Origin: Promethearchaeota archaeon
GTDB taxonomy: Archaea > Asgardarchaeota > Lokiarchaeia > Sigyniarchaeales > SOKP01
Assembly: GCA_019058445.1 (NCBI GenBank)
Contig: JAHPZA010000005.1
Location: 32,001-96,000, forward strand
DNA length: 64,000 nucleotides
Reading direction: 5' to 3'
Shown here: piece after piece, positions 25,017 to 33,949 of the stretch
Numbering within the stretch: position 1 is the first letter of the stretch
Layout of the letters: each line of letters opens with the position of its first letter
Position numbers and translations under genes: made by a program
Notes under the pieces: model-generated
Told to the model about the DNA's origin: nothing
Databases searched by the model: none
What the model saw: the letters and a program-made list of their open reading frames with translations, nothing else

Positions 25017-26186
25017 ATGAATAGAAGAGAACGGGTACAAAGAGCCTTCCATTTTAATCGCCCTGATAGAGTGCCTTTCCTTGGACTAACCGTACAATCT
25101 GATTTCTATCCTATAGAGCCAGTTTTGCCAATTGCATTTCAACCAGAAAAGTATCCTCCACATCCTAATGGCGGGGATACTACAATTAAGAATGCTGCAT
25201 ATCGAAGAGATGTTTATGATTGGAAACCAGAAATTAGAGAAAAATTAGGCTATTCTGAAAATTGGTGGGAAACTCCTCATGATAGTATTGATGAATTTGG
25301 TGTAATATGGCGGTCATCTGGAACTGAAAGTGGTGACAAAACAAAAGGGCATCCCTATAAAGGGCCCTTTCAAGATGAGGGTACAGGTGAAGGATGGGAT
25401 AATCTTGATAATTATGTATTTCCAGATGCAATGGATCCCAAACGTTATTCAAGGATACAGTCTGGAAGGTGGAAAGAAATCGCAGAAGATCGATACCTTT
25501 TAGGTGTTGTTAATATTAATGGAATGTTTAATAAGTGCAGTCAATTGCGAGGTTTTAGCGAACTTTTAATAGATTTGGTGCGAAATCGATATCCGAAAAG
25601 ATTGGATTTTTTAATTAGTTCCGTTCTCTCATTTACTTTAACTACTATCGAGAAAATGAAAGAATCTTGTAAACCTTTAGATTCTATATTTATTGCAGAT
25701 GATTTCGGAACTCAAAAATCAGCATTTGTAAGCCCAAGAATATTTAAAAAATTCTTTAAGGAACCATACAGAAAAATAGTCAGTTTAACTCATGATTTGG
25801 GTATGGACTTTCTCCTTCATTCCTGCGGTGACGTTCTAGGCCTTATCCCAGAATTTATAGATATAGGTATTGATGCTTTACAATTTGACAGCCCTCACAT
25901 GACTGGAGTTGAAAATTTTAAAAAATTTGCCCAAGAAAGAAAAATGGCATTTTGGCTGAGCTCAAACATACAAAGCACATTTATTAATGGAACGCCTCAG
26001 GATGTTGAAGAGGAAGTGAAATATTACATCAAGGATGTAGGGAATAATGAAGGAGGATTAGGAATCTGTGAATACACTGATTTTGAAGCAATAGAAGCCC
26101 CTAAAAAAAATGTCAGAGCCCAGAGAAAAGCCGTACAAAAATGGGGAAACTATAACGAAAATGGTATTATTGAGTGGTTAGTCTAA
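25017..26186 (+). CDS. Uroporphyrinogen decarboxylase / MtaA-CmuA methyltransferase superfamily protein
   Basis: M..RERV..A.....PDRVP, ADDFGTQ, SPRIFKKF, LHSCG and GTPQDVEEEV. Confidence 0.82.
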   Translation: MNRRERVQRAFHFNRPDRVPFLGLTVQSDFYPIEPVLPIAFQPEKYPPHPNGGDTTIKNAAYRRDVYDWKPEIREKLGYSENWWETPHDSIDEFGVIWRSSGTESGDKTKGHPYKGPFQDEGTGEGWDNLDNYVFPDAMDPKRYSRIQSGRWKEIAEDRYLLGVVNINGMFNKCSQLRGFSELLIDLVRNRYPKRLDFLISSVLSFTLTTIEKMKESCKPLDSIFIADDFGTQKSAFVSPRIFKKFFKEPYRKIVSLTHDLGMDFLLHSCGDVLGLIPEFIDIGIDALQFDSPHMTGVENFKKFAQERKMAFWLSSNIQSTFINGTPQDVEEEVKYYIKDVGNNEGGLGICEYTDFEAIEAPKKNVRAQRKAVQKWGNYNENGIIEWLV

Positions 26187-26286: not shown

Positions 26287-26553
26287 TTAGGAGCTTACCA
26301 ATCGAAATAATAAGGCGCCATGAGGAATGTAGAATTCGTCTTTTCTCTTTATCACGACGGTATGAAAATACTCCGCCAGTCCGAGAAACCCTCTTATCAC
26401 ACTCTCGTCTTCTTCAAATTTAAATGTTATATTTGATATTGCCGATCCTGTATTAAAGGCGACCTTCTCATAAACACGCTCATCGATTAAGGGAATTTTT
26501 AATTCATTGACGATTTCATAAACTCGCTTAATAAATAATTCTTTTTTAGCCAT
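26287..26553 (-). CDS. Small hypothetical protein (88 aa)
   Basis: Clean ORF with an upstream GTGATGTGA motif before the ATG; no recognised domain. Confidence 0.7.
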   Translation of the reverse strand: MAKKELFIKRVYEIVNELKIPLIDERVYEKVAFNTGSAISNITFKFEEDESVIRGFLGLAEYFHTVVIKRKDEFYIPHGALLFRLVSS

Positions 26554-26828: not shown

Positions 26829-27995
26829 TTAATTAATAGAAATGGGGTACTTTCCATGTTTTAAAATCACTTTAAAGATTGTTGGGATCGAAGCTAACAT
26901 GTGCATAAAGGAGGGAAAACCTTCTGATATACCCATAAGAAAGTTATCTCCAGGAGCGGCATCCTTCAACATTTCCAATGTCTTTTTCTTTACTGCCTTT
27001 TGACCTTGAAGGCATACAGGTTCAGGGAAGTTAGCCCAAATTACTTTATCTTTCCATGACTCTTTAGCTTCATTAATGGGAAGATTTCCTACAGGAGGTG
27101 CCGTGAAACTCTCAATGGCATCAATTCTTGTTTTCGCAATAAGCTCCTTTAAAGCTTTTAACTCGCCATCCATATGTACAACATATAGTTTATCATGTTT
27201 ATGGAAGATATCTGCTACTTCATTATAGAAAGGCAGACTATATTTCTCGAAAAATTTTGGACTAGTAACTAGAGAAGTAACGTTATCAGGACCCCAAATT
27301 ACTTCACAAGGGGATTCTGCTGCAATTTTATAAACCTCCAGTTCTTTTTTATAAATAATTTTGTAAAGCTCATCAAATTCCTTTTGATGCATATAATAAT
27401 CTAAAGCCAATCTTTTCGGTCCCATAAGCATAATTAATGATTGAAGAGGAGATTTTGGAACAAAGGAGGGGACAATCCCAAAATCACCGATAAACATTTG
27501 AAATTCCTCAATTTCATCATAAAAAGGGCTATATTCAGTATCCTCTATAATATATTTTAATACTTCATAATCCTCAAGAGTTTTGAGGAAATATCCATCT
27601 TCTGGAAACCAAGGAAGGTTCGCAGAAAGGTCAAGACTTTCCATTTTTGCTTTTACTGAAAGTTTCCCTCTTGGAGTACTTAAACTTCCGGTTATATCGT
27701 GAGGGGTATTAAATGCTATCATAATATCTACCGGTGACCAAGAAGTTTTATTCCCATAATGATGGTTAATATCCATCTTAGTATTTGGACAAGAAACTTT
27801 ATGTGTCTGAACTGCCAAAGCAGCATGTAATCCAAGCCCTTTGTCTAATAGTTTTCTCCATGGTTGATAAAGAGCTAATCCAGCTAAATATTTTGTTTCC
27901 ACATAGATAGTAAATGGTATCATATCGGGAGGTTCTCGTCGAAGAACTGCCATTATTCTTTCTTTTGCATTCAACTTTTTACCCACCTCATACAA
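26829..27995 (-). CDS. URO-D superfamily putative corrinoid-dependent methyltransferase
   Basis: ERIMAVLRREPPDMIP, SPKFFEKY, VHMDG, IWANFP; overlaps the corrinoid gene by 25 bp. Confidence 0.78.
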   Translation of the reverse strand: MYEVGKKLNAKERIMAVLRREPPDMIPFTIYVETKYLAGLALYQPWRKLLDKGLGLHAALAVQTHKVSCPNTKMDINHHYGNKTSWSPVDIMIAFNTPHDITGSLSTPRGKLSVKAKMESLDLSANLPWFPEDGYFLKTLEDYEVLKYIIEDTEYSPFYDEIEEFQMFIGDFGIVPSFVPKSPLQSLIMLMGPKRLALDYYMHQKEFDELYKIIYKKELEVYKIAAESPCEVIWGPDNVTSLVTSPKFFEKYSLPFYNEVADIFHKHDKLYVVHMDGELKALKELIAKTRIDAIESFTAPPVGNLPINEAKESWKDKVIWANFPEPVCLQGQKAVKKKTLEMLKDAAPGDNFLMGISEGFPSFMHMLASIPTIFKVILKHGKYPISIN

Positions 27996-28618
27996 ATATT
28001 AACACCATCCATCGCATTTTTCGCATAAGCATCTGCTCCGATATCCTTTATAAACTCTTCAGTGACAGGAGCGCCACCAACAATAACTTTTACTTCTTTT
28101 CTTAGATTTGCCTCTACTAAAGCTTTCATTAAATTACCAACTTCAGGTAAAGTCATAGAGACTAAAGCGGATATGGCAACTATATCTGGATTTTCAGCGC
28201 GTATAGCTTCAATAAACCTTTCTGAAGACACATCAACACCTAAATCAATGACCTCAAAACCTTCTGCTTCTAAAAAAGTTATAACCACATTCTTTCCTAT
28301 ATCGTGTAGATCTCCTTTCCCTGTTCCGATTATAACTTTGGCAAGAGCATTTTTATCACCTTTTTCTTTAATTTGAGGTTCAAGTATTTTCATTGTCTCT
28401 TTTATAATTTCACCAGCCATGATAAGTTCAGGAATGAAGAATTCTTCAGCTTCAAATTTATCACTGATAATATTTGCTGCTTTTGCGATTCCTTCTTGAA
28501 TTATCTTATATGGATGCATTCCTTTAGCAATCGCATCTTCACATACTTTCTTGGCCATTTCAATATCCATCTCGATTACCGCTTTTATATACTGACTTAT
28601 ACTATTTTCTTCTGTCAT
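27971..28618 (-). CDS. Corrinoid (cobalamin-binding) methyltransferase protein
   Basis: B12-binding motif GDLHDIGKN, DLGVDV and VIVGGAP, plus an N-terminal cap domain (FFIPELIMAGE). Confidence 0.93.
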   Translation of the reverse strand: MTEENSISQYIKAVIEMDIEMAKKVCEDAIAKGMHPYKIIQEGIAKAANIISDKFEAEEFFIPELIMAGEIIKETMKILEPQIKEKGDKNALAKVIIGTGKGDLHDIGKNVVITFLEAEGFEVIDLGVDVSSERFIEAIRAENPDIVAISALVSMTLPEVGNLMKALVEANLRKEVKVIVGGAPVTEEFIKDIGADAYAKNAMDGVNICMRWVKS

Positions 28619-28733: not shown

Positions 28734-28787
28734 ACTATAATTTTAATATAGTCAGAAAATACTATAATTTTAATATAGTCAGAAAAT
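28734..28787. promoter_or_regulatory. Perfect 27-bp tandem duplication ACTATAATTTTAATATAGTCAGAAAAT x2, each copy containing the palindrome ACTATA-N7-TATAGT
   Basis: Copies at 28734-28760 and 28761-28787 in the divergent intergenic region between the corrinoid gene and the Pro-rich gene. The repeat is read directly; the regulatory role is inferred. Confidence 0.6.
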
Positions 28788-28849
28788 ATACTAGTAAATA
28801 AATTTAGGATTAATCTATTTTTAAAAATATTAGAGGAATTGATTAAATA

Positions 28850-29623
28850 GTGGTTTCAAAGGAACAGAAGAAGTTAAATCGTGTGATGAATTTTCTAAAA
28901 AAAGGTTTATCCGGTTTAGCAGATGAGTTAGAAGGTACAATTAAAGGAATAAATGAATTCTTAGACTCCCTTCAAAAAGCTCAAAAAGATTTAAAGGGAG
29001 TCGAATCTGAAGAAGAAGTTGTTACTGTAAGCACTTCCTCTACGAAAATTGCTACTCCCAGTCCTGAGACTGCAAAAACTGCAGCTGCAAGTACGTTATT
29101 TAGTTTATTGAGCGGAACTGGAGGTGAAGCAGCTCCAGGCTCCGCACCAGTAGCAGCTGCTGCTTCAGGTGGACTTCCTAAAACGCCTTCAGGCGGTGGA
29201 CCTCCTAAAGCACCTTCAGGCGGTGGGCCTCCAAAGGCACCTCCAGGCGGTGGGCCTCCAAAGGCACCTTCAGGCGGTGGGCCTCCAAAGGCACCATCAG
29301 GCGGTGGGCCTCCAAAGGCACCATCAGGCGGTGGACCTCCAAAGGCACCATCAGGCGGTGGGCCTCCAAAGGCACCATCAAGTGGGTTACCTCCGGCTCC
29401 AAAACTTCCTCCTGCCCCTGGAACAGGCGCCCCTCCTACAGCACCAGGTGGCGTGAAACCGCCAGCTTTTGCAAAAAGAGCAGGACCTCCTGGAGCTCCA
29501 GGAGCACCCCCCGGTGGAGCAGCCCCAGCAGTAGCAGCTCAACCTGGCGGAGGTTTGAGTTCACTTAGAGATGAAATGTTGGATGAATTAAATCGTCTAA
29601 AGAAAATTATGCGTGGAGAATAA
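28850..29623 (+). CDS. Pro/Gly-rich protein with N-terminal coiled coil and C-terminal amphipathic helix (candidate actin regulator)
   Basis: GTG start after GAGGA. Helical N-terminus, 7x GGGPPKAP(S/P), further PPAP/PPGAP tracts, C-terminus SLRDEMLDELNRLKKIMRGE. Confidence 0.85.
   Translation: MVSKEQKKLNRVMNFLKKGLSGLADELEGTIKGINEFLDSLQKAQKDLKGVESEEEVVTVSTSSTKIATPSPETAKTAAASTLFSLLSGTGGEAAPGSAPVAAAASGGLPKTPSGGGPPKAPSGGGPPKAPPGGGPPKAPSGGGPPKAPSGGGPPKAPSGGGPPKAPSGGGPPKAPSSGLPPAPKLPPAPGTGAPPTAPGGVKPPAFAKRAGPPGAPGAPPGGAAPAVAAQPGGGLSSLRDEMLDELNRLKKIMRGE
29192..29380 (+). repeat. Coding minisatellite, 7 x 27 bp (GGCGGTGGRCCTCCWAARGCACCWYCA), plus a degenerate unit at 29165-29191
   Basis: Read directly; encodes GGGPPKAPS repeats with synonymous variation between units. 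Confidence 0.95.
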
Positions 29624-29790
29624 GAGTTTTAACAAAACATTACTTTCTTTTCCTATATCTGTTCAATTTTATTGTTACAATATATAAAGTATTTTAAATT
29701 CAATTTCTTTGTATAAAATTAAATAGAAAAATATGAATTATATAATCAAAGTACATTTTTATTTTAAATAGATTTAAGTGATTAAATTTT

Positions 29791-30909
29791 ATGGGTAATC
29801 TTACTGTTGTTTTAGATATTGGTCAATTTTCGTCTAAAGCGGGTTTCGCAGGTGAAGATTTCCCATCTCAGGTATTTTTTACCATTGTTGGTAAACCTAA
29901 ATATCATAATCTTGATGCGCAATATGGTGGAGGAGCCGAACAGGAAGTTTATGTAGGAGAGGAGATTCAATCTCTTGGACTTTATAAAATTACCTCACCA
30001 ATTAATAAAGGAAAAATAATTGATTGGAGTTATTTCGAAAAGATTTTGGACTATATTTTTTATAATTTAAGAGTTGATCATACTTTAGTAAACGTATTAT
30101 TTGCTATTCATCCATTGTTTCCTAAAAAAGATCTCCAAAAAATATTCGAATTGTTTTTAGAGCATTATCAATGTATGGGATTTTATCCTGTTTTAGACTC
30201 TTTATGTACTCTTTATTCTGGTGGATTTCAAACAGGATTAATTATAGAAATTGGAGATAGTAGTACAAGAATCGTACCTATTTATAATGGATATAAAATA
30301 GATCATGCAATTAAAATTTTAGAAATTGGTGGAAGAGCTCTTACCCGGTATATGGAAACTCTTTTAGGATCCATAGGGTTTGCTTCTGATTCATCAATAA
30401 GGAGAGAATTAGTTCGAGTTTTAAAAGAAAAAGCATGTTTTGTTTCTTTGGATTATAAGGAAGATCTGAAAAGAAGTGAAGAATATACCAAACAATATTC
30501 ATTACCCGATGGGGCGACTATTTCTTTATCCAAAGAAAGATTCATTCTTCCGGAAGCTCTATTCAATCCCTCCTTAATAAATTTAGAACATTATTCATTA
30601 CCAGAAGCAATAATGGATGTAATTGAATTATGTGATGTTGATATTAGGGCTGAATTGTTAAATAATATCTTTTTGTCAGGAGGTTCTTCTATGTTTCCAA
30701 ATCTTAAAAATAGAATATATCAGGAGCTTGAACTCTTGATGGCAAGAAAAAAAATAGACAATCAAGGTATAAAAATTATTGCCCCAAGAGAGAGAACTTT
30801 TTCGGTGTGGGTTGGAGGATCCATTTTATCGATGATCCCGGAATTTTCTGACAATTGGATCACTCGGGCGAAATATTATAAGGACGGCATTCCAGAAGAC
30901 TTTATATGA
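29791..30909 (+). CDS. Actin-family protein (divergent Asgard actin-related protein)
   Basis: VVLDIG..SKAGFAGED.P (phosphate 1), EIGDSSTRIVPIYNGY (phosphate 2), LKEKACFV, YSLPDG, ERF..PEALFNP, CDVDIR, LSGGSSMFP and ER.FSVWVGGSILS. Confidence 0.96.
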   Translation: MGNLTVVLDIGQFSSKAGFAGEDFPSQVFFTIVGKPKYHNLDAQYGGGAEQEVYVGEEIQSLGLYKITSPINKGKIIDWSYFEKILDYIFYNLRVDHTLVNVLFAIHPLFPKKDLQKIFELFLEHYQCMGFYPVLDSLCTLYSGGFQTGLIIEIGDSSTRIVPIYNGYKIDHAIKILEIGGRALTRYMETLLGSIGFASDSSIRRELVRVLKEKACFVSLDYKEDLKRSEEYTKQYSLPDGATISLSKERFILPEALFNPSLINLEHYSLPEAIMDVIELCDVDIRAELLNNIFLSGGSSMFPNLKNRIYQELELLMARKKIDNQGIKIIAPRERTFSVWVGGSILSMIPEFSDNWITRAKYYKDGIPEDFI

Positions 30910-31032: not shown

Positions 31033-31401
31033 TTGGTGTGTTATTTGGAAGAACTTCCTGAAAAAAGTTTCAATAAACAAAGTATGATGAGTAAATACGA
31101 TTTATTTAACAAAATCAAGGGAATTAATACTCCTGTAAAAAGCGATATTTTGATTGCTCTCTTGGATGGAGAATATCATTCTGAGACAGAATTAATCAGA
31201 TTAGCAAAAAAAAGGGGTACAAATTATCTTGGAGCAGTAACTTTAGGAACCATGGTCAATTCATTGAATCATTTATTAAAAAGTAATTATGTAGAGAAAC
31301 AATTTGTAAATGGTGAAATGAATTATAAAATCTCCGATAATTATGTAGGCCTTACGCGAGCAGCATATAATAACTGGCAGCATAAAGCATTTAAATATTA
31401 A
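31033..31401 (+). CDS. Winged-helix-like protein, paralogue 1
   Basis: DILIALLDG..HSETELIR, a helix, then the YVEKQ...YKIS wing. The true start may be the ATG at 31084. Confidence 0.65.
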   Translation: MVCYLEELPEKSFNKQSMMSKYDLFNKIKGINTPVKSDILIALLDGEYHSETELIRLAKKRGTNYLGAVTLGTMVNSLNHLLKSNYVEKQFVNGEMNYKISDNYVGLTRAAYNNWQHKAFKY

Positions 31402-31406
31402 GGGGA

Positions 31407-31775
31407 ATGATTTTGGATAAATTAGGAAAAGAATTTAATATTTCTACACTTATGAAAATCGTCTTTAAACCAGAATATTCCAATATGTTCAATAAGATCA
31501 CTAATATAAATGCTCCTGTAAAAAATGACATCCTAATAACTCTTTTAGATGGGAAATACCATTCTCAAACCGAAATTATAAGACTCATTAAAAAAAAACA
31601 TCAATATCTCGGTCCAATAACTCTTACGACCATGATAGAATCTTTGAATAGTCGCACAAAAAATAATTACTTAGTAAAAAAGATTGTAAATGGAAGAATT
31701 TACTATAAAATCTCTGATAATTATGTTGGCCTCACAAAGGCTGCTTTTACAAAATTCAGGTTTGCAAATATTTGA
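31407..31775 (+). CDS. Winged-helix-like protein, paralogue 2
   Basis: Clearly homologous to 31033-31401 (PVK.DILI.LLDG.YHS.TE.IR; YKISDNYVGLT.AA); GGGGA upstream of the ATG. Confidence 0.68.
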   Translation: MILDKLGKEFNISTLMKIVFKPEYSNMFNKITNINAPVKNDILITLLDGKYHSQTEIIRLIKKKHQYLGPITLTTMIESLNSRTKNNYLVKKIVNGRIYYKISDNYVGLTKAAFTKFRFANI

Positions 31776-31777
31776 GA

Positions 31778-33949
31778 TTATCGCTTAACACATTTATTAT
31801 TTACTATTTTATAATTCTCACAGCTAGAGCAAAAGCCTTTTGTAGTCTTACTGCTTAGTCCTTCAGCCCAACACTTCGGGCACATATAATATGAAAATTT
31901 GTTGTTCCCCTTTTTTGTGGAAACCATAAAAATATTAAAATTACAGATTGAACAAGTAGAATTCAATAATTTCAACCGACCCCGTTTAGGTAATGGCAAA
32001 TATTTTTTGCATGATTCATCTGAACATACAAGAAATCTCTTTCCCTTTAAATTAATATATTTCATAGGGACTTTTTTACAAAATGGACAATAAGATGAGG
32101 TTAATGGAAATTCCTTTTTCGGTTTTGGACTCAGTTCACTATTTTGAACCTTATAATCTTCGGCATTTTTAATCAATTCTTGCTTATTGGCAAGAAATTT
32201 ATCAAATAAAGTTAAGAAGTCTTTTTTAACATCCTCAATAACCGCAAGCATTTCCCGTTTTTCATCCTTTATCAATTCAAGTTGAGATTCAACTTCGTGG
32301 GTAAAATTAGGTTTTAGAAAAGGTAGCCATACTTTTATCAAATTTTCGATTAGAAAAGAACCTAGATTTGAAATAATGTATTTCGTTCCACTTTTATATA
32401 TCACTTTTCTCTGTTTCATGATCTCTATAATTGCGGGTCTAGTAGATTTTGTTCCCAATCCATGCTTTTCCATTAGTTTAAGAAGGGTGGTATCTGTATA
32501 ATGAGGAGGAGGCTTAGTCTCTTTTTCGTTATACTCAATACTTTTAACAGGAATTTTATCACCACCAATCTGTATTTCTGTATCATACTTTGGTCTTAAA
32601 AAGGGTGCAATTGTAAAAAAGCCAGAATCTACTAATGAAACAATCTGGGCTTTAAAGGGTTCATCTTTTATTAAGAGATCCAAATCTTGTTTAGATTCGG
32701 TGGCGCTTTCTCCAAAAAGTGCTAGATAATGTCTTGCGAGTAGGTCATAAATTTGTTTTTGAAGATTATTTTTTAATCGGGTGCTACTTAGTTCTAAACT
32801 AAATAGGGGTGAGATAGGAGGATGATCTCCAGCATCTTTTTTACCTTTAGTGGGTTTAAATCTTTTCTTTTTAATCAAATCTTGTGTATAATTTCCATAT
32901 TCAGAATGAGTTTTGAATAATTCAATTAGATCTCTATGGGGAAAGTCTGGTTTGTAAACATCACTGTCAGTTCTCGGATAGGTGATAATTTGATCTAAAT
33001 ATAACTGGTTCATAACGCTTAACGCTGTGTTCGCATTAATCTTTAAATTTTTTGTGAGTAAAATAAGTGCTTTATTAGTGTTTAATGGTGCTGGAGGTTT
33101 TCTCTTTACTATATTTTTGTTGAAATTTTCTATAAACGCTATTTTTTCATTCTTAATCTTACCATAAATATCCTTAGCTTTTACCATATCCTCTTTTTTG
33201 AAAGGATTTTTCTTATGATACGCTTTGAAAGTTGATGTTTCAGAAATTAAATTAGCGTCTATTGTAACATATTTTTCTGGAACAAAATCTATAATTTCCT
33301 TTTCTCTTAGATATAATAAATATAGTGCTGAAGTCTGTACTCGTCCTATTGAAGTAAAGGTGACTTTAAATTTTAATAATAATGGTTTCAATGTATTTGT
33401 TATTTCCCTTGTGGCAGAGAACCCAATAATTGCATCAAGTAATGCTCTTGCCTCACCAGCTTCAGCCCAGCTTAATTTGGGTTTAATTAAATTTTGAAAT
33501 TTTGTTTGTATCTCATTTTTCTGCAATGAACTTAGCCACAATTGAGATACCTTGATATTTGATTTCATTTTTCTTACATAAGGAAGAGCATCAAAAAATC
33601 CTATATTGCATCCTTCAACATCGGCATCTGTGGCGATTATTACCTCATGGCATAATTTTCCAAATTCTTTAAGCGCTGTGATATAAGGCGATGCATAACT
33701 TTTTGGCACTTTTTTAATGGCATCTGAATCCGTTATAATATTTCGAGGATTGGTTCTGCTCCAGCTTTTATATTTATCGGTATTTCGATGTTCAAGAATA
33801 TGTCCTCTAAGAGGTAATACAAAAATATCTTTTGAATAAACGTGATAAATACTAATATTTTTATTTTTTTTTATGATTTTAATAGGACCTAATGCTTCCG
33901 CAATTGCCTTTGCTGCTTTATTTTTCTCGGCAATTAACAATGTTGGCAT
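31778..33949 (-). CDS. topA: Type IA DNA topoisomerase (topoisomerase III type) with C-terminal Zn-binding domain
   Basis: TOPRIM motifs IAEK and ATDADVEG, SIGRVQT, active site ITYPRTDS, DHPPISP, GLGTKSTR and C-terminal CxxC pairs. Confidence 0.93.
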   Translation of the reverse strand: MPTLLIAEKNKAAKAIAEALGPIKIIKKNKNISIYHVYSKDIFVLPLRGHILEHRNTDKYKSWSRTNPRNIITDSDAIKKVPKSYASPYITALKEFGKLCHEVIIATDADVEGCNIGFFDALPYVRKMKSNIKVSQLWLSSLQKNEIQTKFQNLIKPKLSWAEAGEARALLDAIIGFSATREITNTLKPLLLKFKVTFTSIGRVQTSALYLLYLREKEIIDFVPEKYVTIDANLISETSTFKAYHKKNPFKKEDMVKAKDIYGKIKNEKIAFIENFNKNIVKRKPPAPLNTNKALILLTKNLKINANTALSVMNQLYLDQIITYPRTDSDVYKPDFPHRDLIELFKTHSEYGNYTQDLIKKKRFKPTKGKKDAGDHPPISPLFSLELSSTRLKNNLQKQIYDLLARHYLALFGESATESKQDLDLLIKDEPFKAQIVSLVDSGFFTIAPFLRPKYDTEIQIGGDKIPVKSIEYNEKETKPPPHYTDTTLLKLMEKHGLGTKSTRPAIIEIMKQRKVIYKSGTKYIISNLGSFLIENLIKVWLPFLKPNFTHEVESQLELIKDEKREMLAVIEDVKKDFLTLFDKFLANKQELIKNAEDYKVQNSELSPKPKKEFPLTSSYCPFCKKVPMKYINLKGKRFLVCSDESCKKYLPLPKRGRLKLLNSTCSICNFNIFMVSTKKGNNKFSYYMCPKCWAEGLSSKTTKGFCSSCENYKIVNNKCVKR

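Follow-up and report, generated by a model that had tools for sequence, protein, structure and literature searches.

The WH2 motif, which binds the barbed-end hydrophobic cleft of actin, consists of a three-turn amphipathic helix, a short linker and an invariant LKK[TV] sequence (LLxxIxxGxxLKKV), the ligands of profilin carry runs of at least five consecutive prolines, and the MIM1 motif of ESCRT-III proteins displays the spacing (D/E)xxLxxRLxxL(K/R) at the extreme C-terminus. The C-terminal helix of the archaeal protein arcadin-2 binds on its own to crenactin's hydrophobic groove, and is preceded by an unconserved and unstructured linker (PMC5173319). Asgard archaea possess dynamic actin filaments and protrusions, for which the mode of filament nucleation, elongation and anchoring is an open question; only profilins and gelsolins have been described in these organisms, and no nucleator or elongation factor is known (PMC13716822; PMC12050087). 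The present analysis concerns a stretch of 64,000 nucleotides (G000:C5:32001-96000), hereafter the window, of an Asgard (Promethearchaeota) genome with 30-33% G+C, and within it the gene for a 257-amino-acid protein, termed X, which is followed on the same strand by that for a divergent actin of 372 amino acids, termed ARP (actin-related protein). An initial annotation had suggested that X may be a WH2- or VASP-like nucleation factor dedicated to this ARP. X belongs to a real, old, widely conserved and previously undescribed Asgard protein family, and together with a conserved 88-residue protein (p88) it constitutes an Asgard-specific two-gene module, which predates the neighbouring ARP and has a wider distribution.

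The gene for X has a GTG start codon, with the sequence GAGG 12 nt upstream, and is composed of the following parts.
28850..29623, + strand: gene X, encoding a conserved Asgard protein of 257 amino acids (open reading frame (ORF) list, homologue alignments and AlphaFold2 (AF2) model)
28859..28996, + strand: N-terminal helix of 46 residues (4-49), AF2 pLDDT ~90, with a conserved KKGL...KDLK pattern
29063..29110, + strand: short hydrophobic helix (residues 72-87) containing STLFSLLSG, AF2 pLDDT 56-64
29126..29536, + strand: disordered spacer rich in Pro, Gly and Ala (residues 93-229), of low pLDDT and of different length among homologues
29189..29380, + strand: 27-bp in-frame tandem repeat, 7.1 copies, encoding the unit SGGGPPKAP (Tandem Repeats Finder, period 27, 95% match)
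29555..29611, + strand: C-terminal amphipathic helix (residues 236-254, LSSLRDEMLDELNRLKKIM), a putative docking peptide, pLDDT ~94

The AF2 model, for which an alignment of 17 diverse homologues was used, displays three helices only, the regions between them being disordered (pTM 0.22). Hydrophobic residues occupy 85% of the heptad a and d positions of the N-terminal helix in its best register, and this segment is likely to be a coiled coil acting as an oligomerization element. The short hydrophobic helix carries a motif, AAxxLFxLLSG, that is conserved across families. Proline accounts for one-third of the spacer, in which PPKAP (PxxP) units are accompanied by the conserved motifs LPPAPKLPP and FAKR; the median number of PxxP motifs is 11. 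The tandem repeat is expanded in the window genome in comparison with the two to three units found in the homologues of X. The protein ends in ...KKIMRGE, with basic residues following the C-terminal helix. All of the elements that the initial annotation had recognized in X, namely the N-terminal coiled coil, the STLFSLLSG helix, the Pro/Gly tract and the terminal helix, were recovered by structure prediction, heptad analysis and repeat detection. Upstream of X, an A+T-rich region (window positions ~28740-28795) holds two copies of a direct repeat of ~24 nt (TAATATAGTCAGAAAATA...).

A word-index search with residues 1-100 of X retrieved 37 homologues of 176-267 amino acids, sharing 59-88% identity and all originating from Asgard metagenome-assembled genomes. 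When aligned, these proteins prove almost invariant over the last 24 residues (GGGL[SG]SLRDEMLxELxRLKKIMRG[ED]) and well conserved over the N-terminal 92, with a proline-rich part of variable length. The C-terminal helix is the best conserved segment of the protein; it is invariant within the GTDB family of the window (family f1; the f-numbers used here denote GTDB families, f3 being the sister family of f1), and the lack of helix conservation among homologues that would have counted against the initial annotation is not observed. The high conservation of both of its faces suggests an equally conserved partner. The helix core, [LI][RK]xxM[LM]xE[LI]x[RK][LI]K, is kept in every X-bearing family, and within the window genome this pattern matches X alone.

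When 400 genomes of the phylum were scanned with a profile of the N-terminal region, X was detected in 113 of the 134 f1 genomes, in f2-f6, in f19 (16/19) and in f27 (4/4; genomes of 1.3-1.4 Mb); further clear full-length matches, in f7, f20, f21 and f26, were obtained with a broader profile that covers the entire protein. X is therefore present in at least 12 GTDB families (f1-f7, f19-f21, f26 and f27), and its modular layout (an oligomerizing helix, a proline-rich spacer and a C-terminal helix), already described in the initial annotation, is kept in all of them across the phylum. Weak matches to the full-length profile in f13, f16, f18 and f31 were left out of this count; one that was inspected covered proline-rich and C-terminal positions only, inside a 573-residue ORF. 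No Pfam family was found for X, either with the window protein at E ≤ 0.01 or with aligned members at E ≤ 1, the only matches being noise (DUF948, flagellin and coiled-coil families). Sequence searches of the PDB returned tau-repeat noise only for the C-terminal 30-mer and designed coiled coils only for the N-terminal profile, the ESM Atlas returned only the Promethearchaeota cluster of X itself, and a full-text literature search for X motifs found no paper.

Clustering of the neighbours of X over 23 loci revealed one family common to several classes, that of p88.
26287..26553, - strand: p88, a conserved protein of 88 amino acids and phylum-wide neighbour of X; AF2 pLDDT 91

The linkage of X and p88 is itself directly observed: the two genes are adjacent in nine GTDB families from at least three classes, with p88 divergent and upstream in f1, in tandem with X in f2, f5 and f6, and convergent and downstream in f7, f19, f21, f26 and f27. 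The other neighbours of X outside f1 are unconserved housekeeping genes (adenylosuccinate synthetase, methylase, NUDIX, lysyl-tRNA synthetase, GTPase, ribosomal protein S25 and PhoU). In its phyletic distribution p88 likewise agrees with X, being present in f1-f7, f19-f21, f26 and f27 and absent from f8-f18 (including 0/31, 0/22 and two sets of 0/12), f22-f25 and f28-f30. Genes for a URO-D-like methyltransferase and a B12-binding corrinoid protein (26829-28618, - strand) separate p88 from X in the genus of the window, and a second URO-D-like gene lies at 25017-26186 (+ strand); in other f1 genomes nothing intervenes between p88 and X, which are divergent. The fold predicted for p88 consists of a helix followed by a β-α-β-β-β unit, its partial structural matches are glyoxalase-like β-α-β-β-β halves, and Roadblock, gelsolin and profilin were not among the matches of the fold search. 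A Pfam search with aligned p88 members at E ≤ 1 returned noise only, and the ESM Atlas only its own Promethearchaeota cluster. An exhaustive profile search of 1.84 billion proteins found 27 representatives, all of 33-115 amino acids, with no fused forms among longer proteins.

When all six-frame ORFs of the window genome were searched with a profile of the X helix, a sister family, termed Y, was identified.
G000:C1:106032-106496 (= L073:7033-7497), - strand: gene Y, ~145 amino acids, outside the window (helix profile and VASP FAB scan)

Y has at least 202 homologues. Its N-terminal region is helical and conserved, and a GGPP/PPPPP spacer leads from there to the end helix, SLRGAIMGELKQLFAKR, which is invariant. 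Its helix SLRGAIMGELKQLF is related to the end helix of X, the general form being SLRxx[IM][ML]xELxxL, and both proteins follow the same design, which suggests a docking target shared by the two helices. On the other hand, Y is the shorter protein, has a different N-terminal domain, is linked neither to p88 nor to an actin gene and contains true PPPPP runs; the longest proline run reaches at least five residues, as in profilin ligands, in 101 of 120 members. Y always lies between genes for an all-helical 207-residue protein and a 578-residue protein, neither of known family, the three forming a conserved trio; the 207-residue neighbour matches only its own Promethearchaeota cluster in the ESM Atlas. 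Segments resembling the X end helix also occur near the C-terminus of a 259-residue protein (ALRQEMLGELDRLRSV; G000:C10:30086-30862, - strand) and in a Cys-rich protein of 163 residues (QLRDQMLDELNNLREI; G000:C9:173184-173672, - strand), both without a Pfam family.

In common with WH2 proteins, X is disordered and proline-rich and ends in an amphipathic helix that is short and carries an LKK[IV]-like motif. However, LKKI continues the helix in X, the linker of 3-5 residues is missing, and LKK becomes LKS, IKE, LKT or LKKL in other families. In the VCA region of WASP/WAVE, a central (C) helix is joined to an acidic tail whose conserved Trp engages the Arp2/3 complex; X has no central region, no homologue ends in an acidic or Trp tail, and co-occurrence with an Arp is not obligate, f4, f7, f21, f26 and f27 being without an ARP orthologue. 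Ena/VASP proteins consist of an EVH1 domain, a proline-rich region and an EVH2 region, the last with the actin-binding motifs GAB and FAB and a tetramerizing coiled coil. X likewise combines a coiled coil for oligomerization with a region rich in proline and with short amphipathic helices of basic character, and its ending, GGGL..LRDEM..L.R.KK, resembles by eye the F-actin-binding segment (FAB) of human VASP (FAB sequence from PMC10340426). The order of the modules is nevertheless reversed, with the coiled coil of X at the N-terminus, Pfam gave no match to EVH1 or VASP, and X contains PP pairs where VASP has GPPPPP runs.

Arcadin-2, the crenactin regulator of Pyrobaculum, resembles X in being archaeal, in being encoded beside an actin homologue and in ending, after a linker that is not conserved, with a C-terminal helix that is. 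The two proteins display no sequence similarity, however, and the linkage of X to an actin gene is confined to f1. Arcadin-2 is part of the arcade cluster of crenarchaea and has a helix dependent on a tryptophan, a residue that X lacks; X for its part carries a coiled coil at the N-terminus and a spacer rich in PxxP motifs, and its actin binding is putative. In the MIM1 tails of ESCRT-III and IST1, too, a proline-rich linker precedes an amphipathic helix at the extreme C-terminus, and the ending of X, DELNRLKKIM, resembles the C-terminus of the ESCRT-III protein of the same genome, EEIEKLKKEL; X differs in having a single N-terminal helix instead of an ESCRT-III core and in lacking a Snf7 Pfam match. 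A direct reading of the X helix as a MIM1 motif was rejected, Leu247 and Arg249 being one residue too close. The Snf7 (ESCRT-III) gene of the genome lies elsewhere and is not linked to X.

Tentatively, and at well below even likelihood, X may be an adaptor with a docking helix for actin-fold proteins, with p88 as its cofactor or regulator. X would be a mostly disordered adaptor, rendered multivalent by its N-terminal helix, most likely a coiled coil; the PxxP-rich spacer would act as a flexible tether, the length of which drifts through repeat expansion, and the invariant C-terminal helix would be the docking peptide for a very conserved partner. The preferred target would be the hydrophobic groove of actin-fold proteins, as in the binding of arcadin-2 to crenactin and of WH2-type helices to actin; in every lineage this would be the canonical actin, to which the ARP may be added in the two Loki families where it exists. 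Three considerations speak for actin-fold proteins as the most likely single target, with about one chance in three, a non-actin target being nearly as likely: the arcadin-2 precedent, a genomic association with the ARP that is weak, and the fact that no Asgard nucleator or elongation factor is known. The common design of X and Y, with the PPPPP runs of the latter, and the distances between p88 and the ARP in f3 (see below) are further hints towards actin. In a bolder version, which is judged improbable, X and Y would together represent the missing Asgard actin-assembly factor, an oligomer comparable to VASP or to formin tails and equipped with a C-terminal docking helix for the delivery or tethering of actin, with p88 as a small regulatory subunit; if this were true, the X/Y factor would predate the eukaryotic WH2, VASP and WASP families and be unrelated to them.

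A number of observations weigh against an actin-fold target. X displays no detectable homology to WH2, VASP, WASP or any other Pfam family, and the WH2 profile (PF02205) gave no match in 20 members of the X family even at E ≤ 1. When the human VASP FAB and GAB (G-actin-binding) sequences (PMC10340426) were scored by the Smith-Waterman method against all genome ORFs of at least 80 amino acids (n = 6562), X ranked 135th and 129th, respectively, so that its likeness to VASP is within chance; with the WH2 linker also missing, the WH2/VASP identity that had been proposed for the helix is not supported. The longest proline run of X is two residues in 40 of 51 homologues, mostly PP pairs rather than polyproline, and Loki profilins are reported not to bind polyproline (PMC8410842); for both reasons, recruitment of profilin by X appears doubtful. 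The p88 model gave no convincing fold when compared with the PDB (Foldseek and a wide structural alignment) and the Atlas (best Z 4.4), and the second copies of p88 present in some genomes do not lie beside proline-rich or coiled-coil/helix genes. A weaker point is that the proteins named from co-immunoprecipitation with Lokiactin in L. ossiferum, in the part of that report consulted, were profilin, gelsolins, an ARF GTPase and BAR proteins, with no X-like protein among them (PMC13716822, which cites the public co-immunoprecipitation and proteome data sets PRIDE PXD068820 and PXD074767). Prediction of a complex of ARP, p88 and full-length X with alignments made in this analysis yielded ipSAE values of 0.14 and 0.10, both under the mark of 0.32, which count neither for nor against binding.

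The genomic context of the ARP bears on the same question. The features concerned are the following.
29624..29790, + strand: X-ARP intergenic spacer, 167 bp, 85% A+T, holding TTTAAATA at 29763-29770
29791..30909, + strand: ARP, a divergent actin paralogue of 372 amino acids (Pfam Actin 286 bits; PDB actins E ~1e-84)
31033..31401 and 31407..31775, + strand: two tandem 122-residue paralogues without a Pfam match, part of the f1 synteny block

The ORF list and the Pfam match confirm the actin-family gene that had been noted 167 bp after X on the same strand. The ARP matches PF00022 over its full length (positions 6-401 of a profile of 410), shares 40% identity with the two Lokiactin-like genes of the genome and ranks only fourth best of its six actin-family genes. 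Its phosphate-1 loop reads DIGQF and its second loop EIGDSS, against DNGTG and DIGDGV in the Lokiactins of the genome, and Asp stands where actin has Gln137 (Gly in the f3 orthologues). Given this divergence, 'ARP-like' is a fair description of the product. The archaeal TATA-box consensus TTTAAATA lies 21 nt before the ARP start codon ATG; this octamer occurs at a rate of 0.39 per kb in the window, and it is plausible that it represents a promoter of the ARP's own, giving a separate, leaderless or short-leader mRNA. The TATA-like boxes pointed out earlier are indeed present in the spacer (hexamers at 29681, 29683, 29712 and 29739), but are not diagnostic because such hexamers occur at 2.3 per kb throughout the AT-rich window.

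In f1, for which 30 loci were sampled, the gene order is p88 (-), X (+), ARP (+), one or two genes for 122-residue proteins (+) and topoisomerase III (-). The ARP directly follows X in about two-thirds of these loci, and in most f1 genomes the two genes stand in tandem on the same strand, with a spacer of 120-470 bp. This arrangement, together with a modular layout recalling WASP and VASP, is what would favour X as a dedicated nucleation-promoting factor (NPF) for the adjacent ARP, an ancestral NPF-Arp pair, a proposal that now seems very improbable and the least probable of those considered. In f1 itself, a PIG-L deacetylase gene separates X from the ARP in L023, L026 and L028, and other genes follow X in L015, L029 and L039. 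Outside f1, no actin gene was found within 8 kb of X in 20 of 20 loci. ARP orthologues, recognized by 48-55% identity as opposed to 40-44% for canonical actins, occur in f1 and f3 only, and in f3 they lie 44 kb (G135), 67 kb (G132), ~100 kb (G143) and 273 kb (G138) from X; linkage of the two genes is restricted to f1. In G138 the orthologue of X is found at about 729.7-730.2 kb and that of p88 at about 466.8-467.1 kb. The families f4, f7, f21, f26 and f27 possess X with matches at the level of canonical actins only, and G300 and G117 retain X with a single actin-family match each. With X in at least 12 families, some of whose genomes have one actin only, and the ARP in two, X is older and much more widespread than the ARP and cannot be its dedicated factor; the tandem position is a lineage-specific arrangement and not a defining feature of X. 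The absence from X of an acidic/Trp CA tail and of a WH2 match, as well as the probable promoter of the ARP, point in the same direction.

The adjacency of X and the ARP can be explained as residual synteny, because the f1 block also preserves a topoisomerase III gene that is unrelated. The distance between p88 and the ARP is 8-19 kb in closed f3 genomes, and in G135 X, p88 and the ARP all lie within 45 kb; the decay of an ancestral block with the order p88-X-ARP fits the distances found in f3. The 122-residue genes follow the ARP in one or two copies throughout f1, whereas f3 shows weak similarity only, inside much longer proteins. The topoisomerase III-type gene that ends the block (window 31778-33949, - strand) encodes 723 amino acids, including a Cys-rich C-terminal zinc-ribbon region, and its orthologues contain Toprim and Topoisom_bac domains.

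Were the ARP a case of neutral synteny, the same adaptor design could serve a helix that targets a non-actin partner, such as p88, the MIT domain of Vps4 (in a MIM1-like manner, as in IST1 and CHMP) or another conserved hub, an explanation that is only slightly less likely than docking on actin-fold proteins. In its favour, p88 is the sole neighbour conserved across classes, X persists where the ARP is absent, and its helix is without significant similarity to actin-binding motifs; the helix also follows a proline-rich linker, occupies the extreme C-terminus and ends like the ESCRT-III protein of the genome. As regards an MIT target in particular, the canonical MIM1 spacing is not found in the X helix, the ESCRT-III gene is not among the top 25 genome matches of the helix profile, the surroundings of X contain no ESCRT gene in the loci examined, and the similarity to MIM1 was judged by eye only. 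A specific protein target may also be dispensed with altogether if X is a membrane- or envelope-associated disordered protein, with helices 72-87 and 236-254 binding lipid and the proline-rich region acting as a spacer or brush. Such a role would account for two short amphipathic or hydrophobic helices flanking a long disordered tract and for the basic residues that follow the C-terminal helix. Lipid-binding helices, however, usually conserve physicochemical character and not exact sequence, while 24 consecutive residues of X are almost invariant across genera, and no signal peptide or transmembrane segment is visible in the X sequence; the chances of this explanation are slight. Docking on actin-fold proteins, with p88 as cofactor or regulator, is retained as the preferred, if tentative, reading.

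The X-p88 module and the sister family with polyproline runs are the new elements described here. X appears to be neither a member of the WH2, VASP or WASP families nor a dedicated partner of the ARP, and the adjacency of the two genes within one family should not be taken as an ancestral NPF-Arp system. X is a candidate cytoskeletal adaptor rather than a demonstrated actin-nucleation factor. Its family, abundant and strongly conserved, is absent from the literature and resembles in its construction a multivalent adaptor with tethered peptides, and, whatever the target of its helix may be, the invariant 20-residue helix, the 88-residue partner and the polyproline sister family provide experimental handles.

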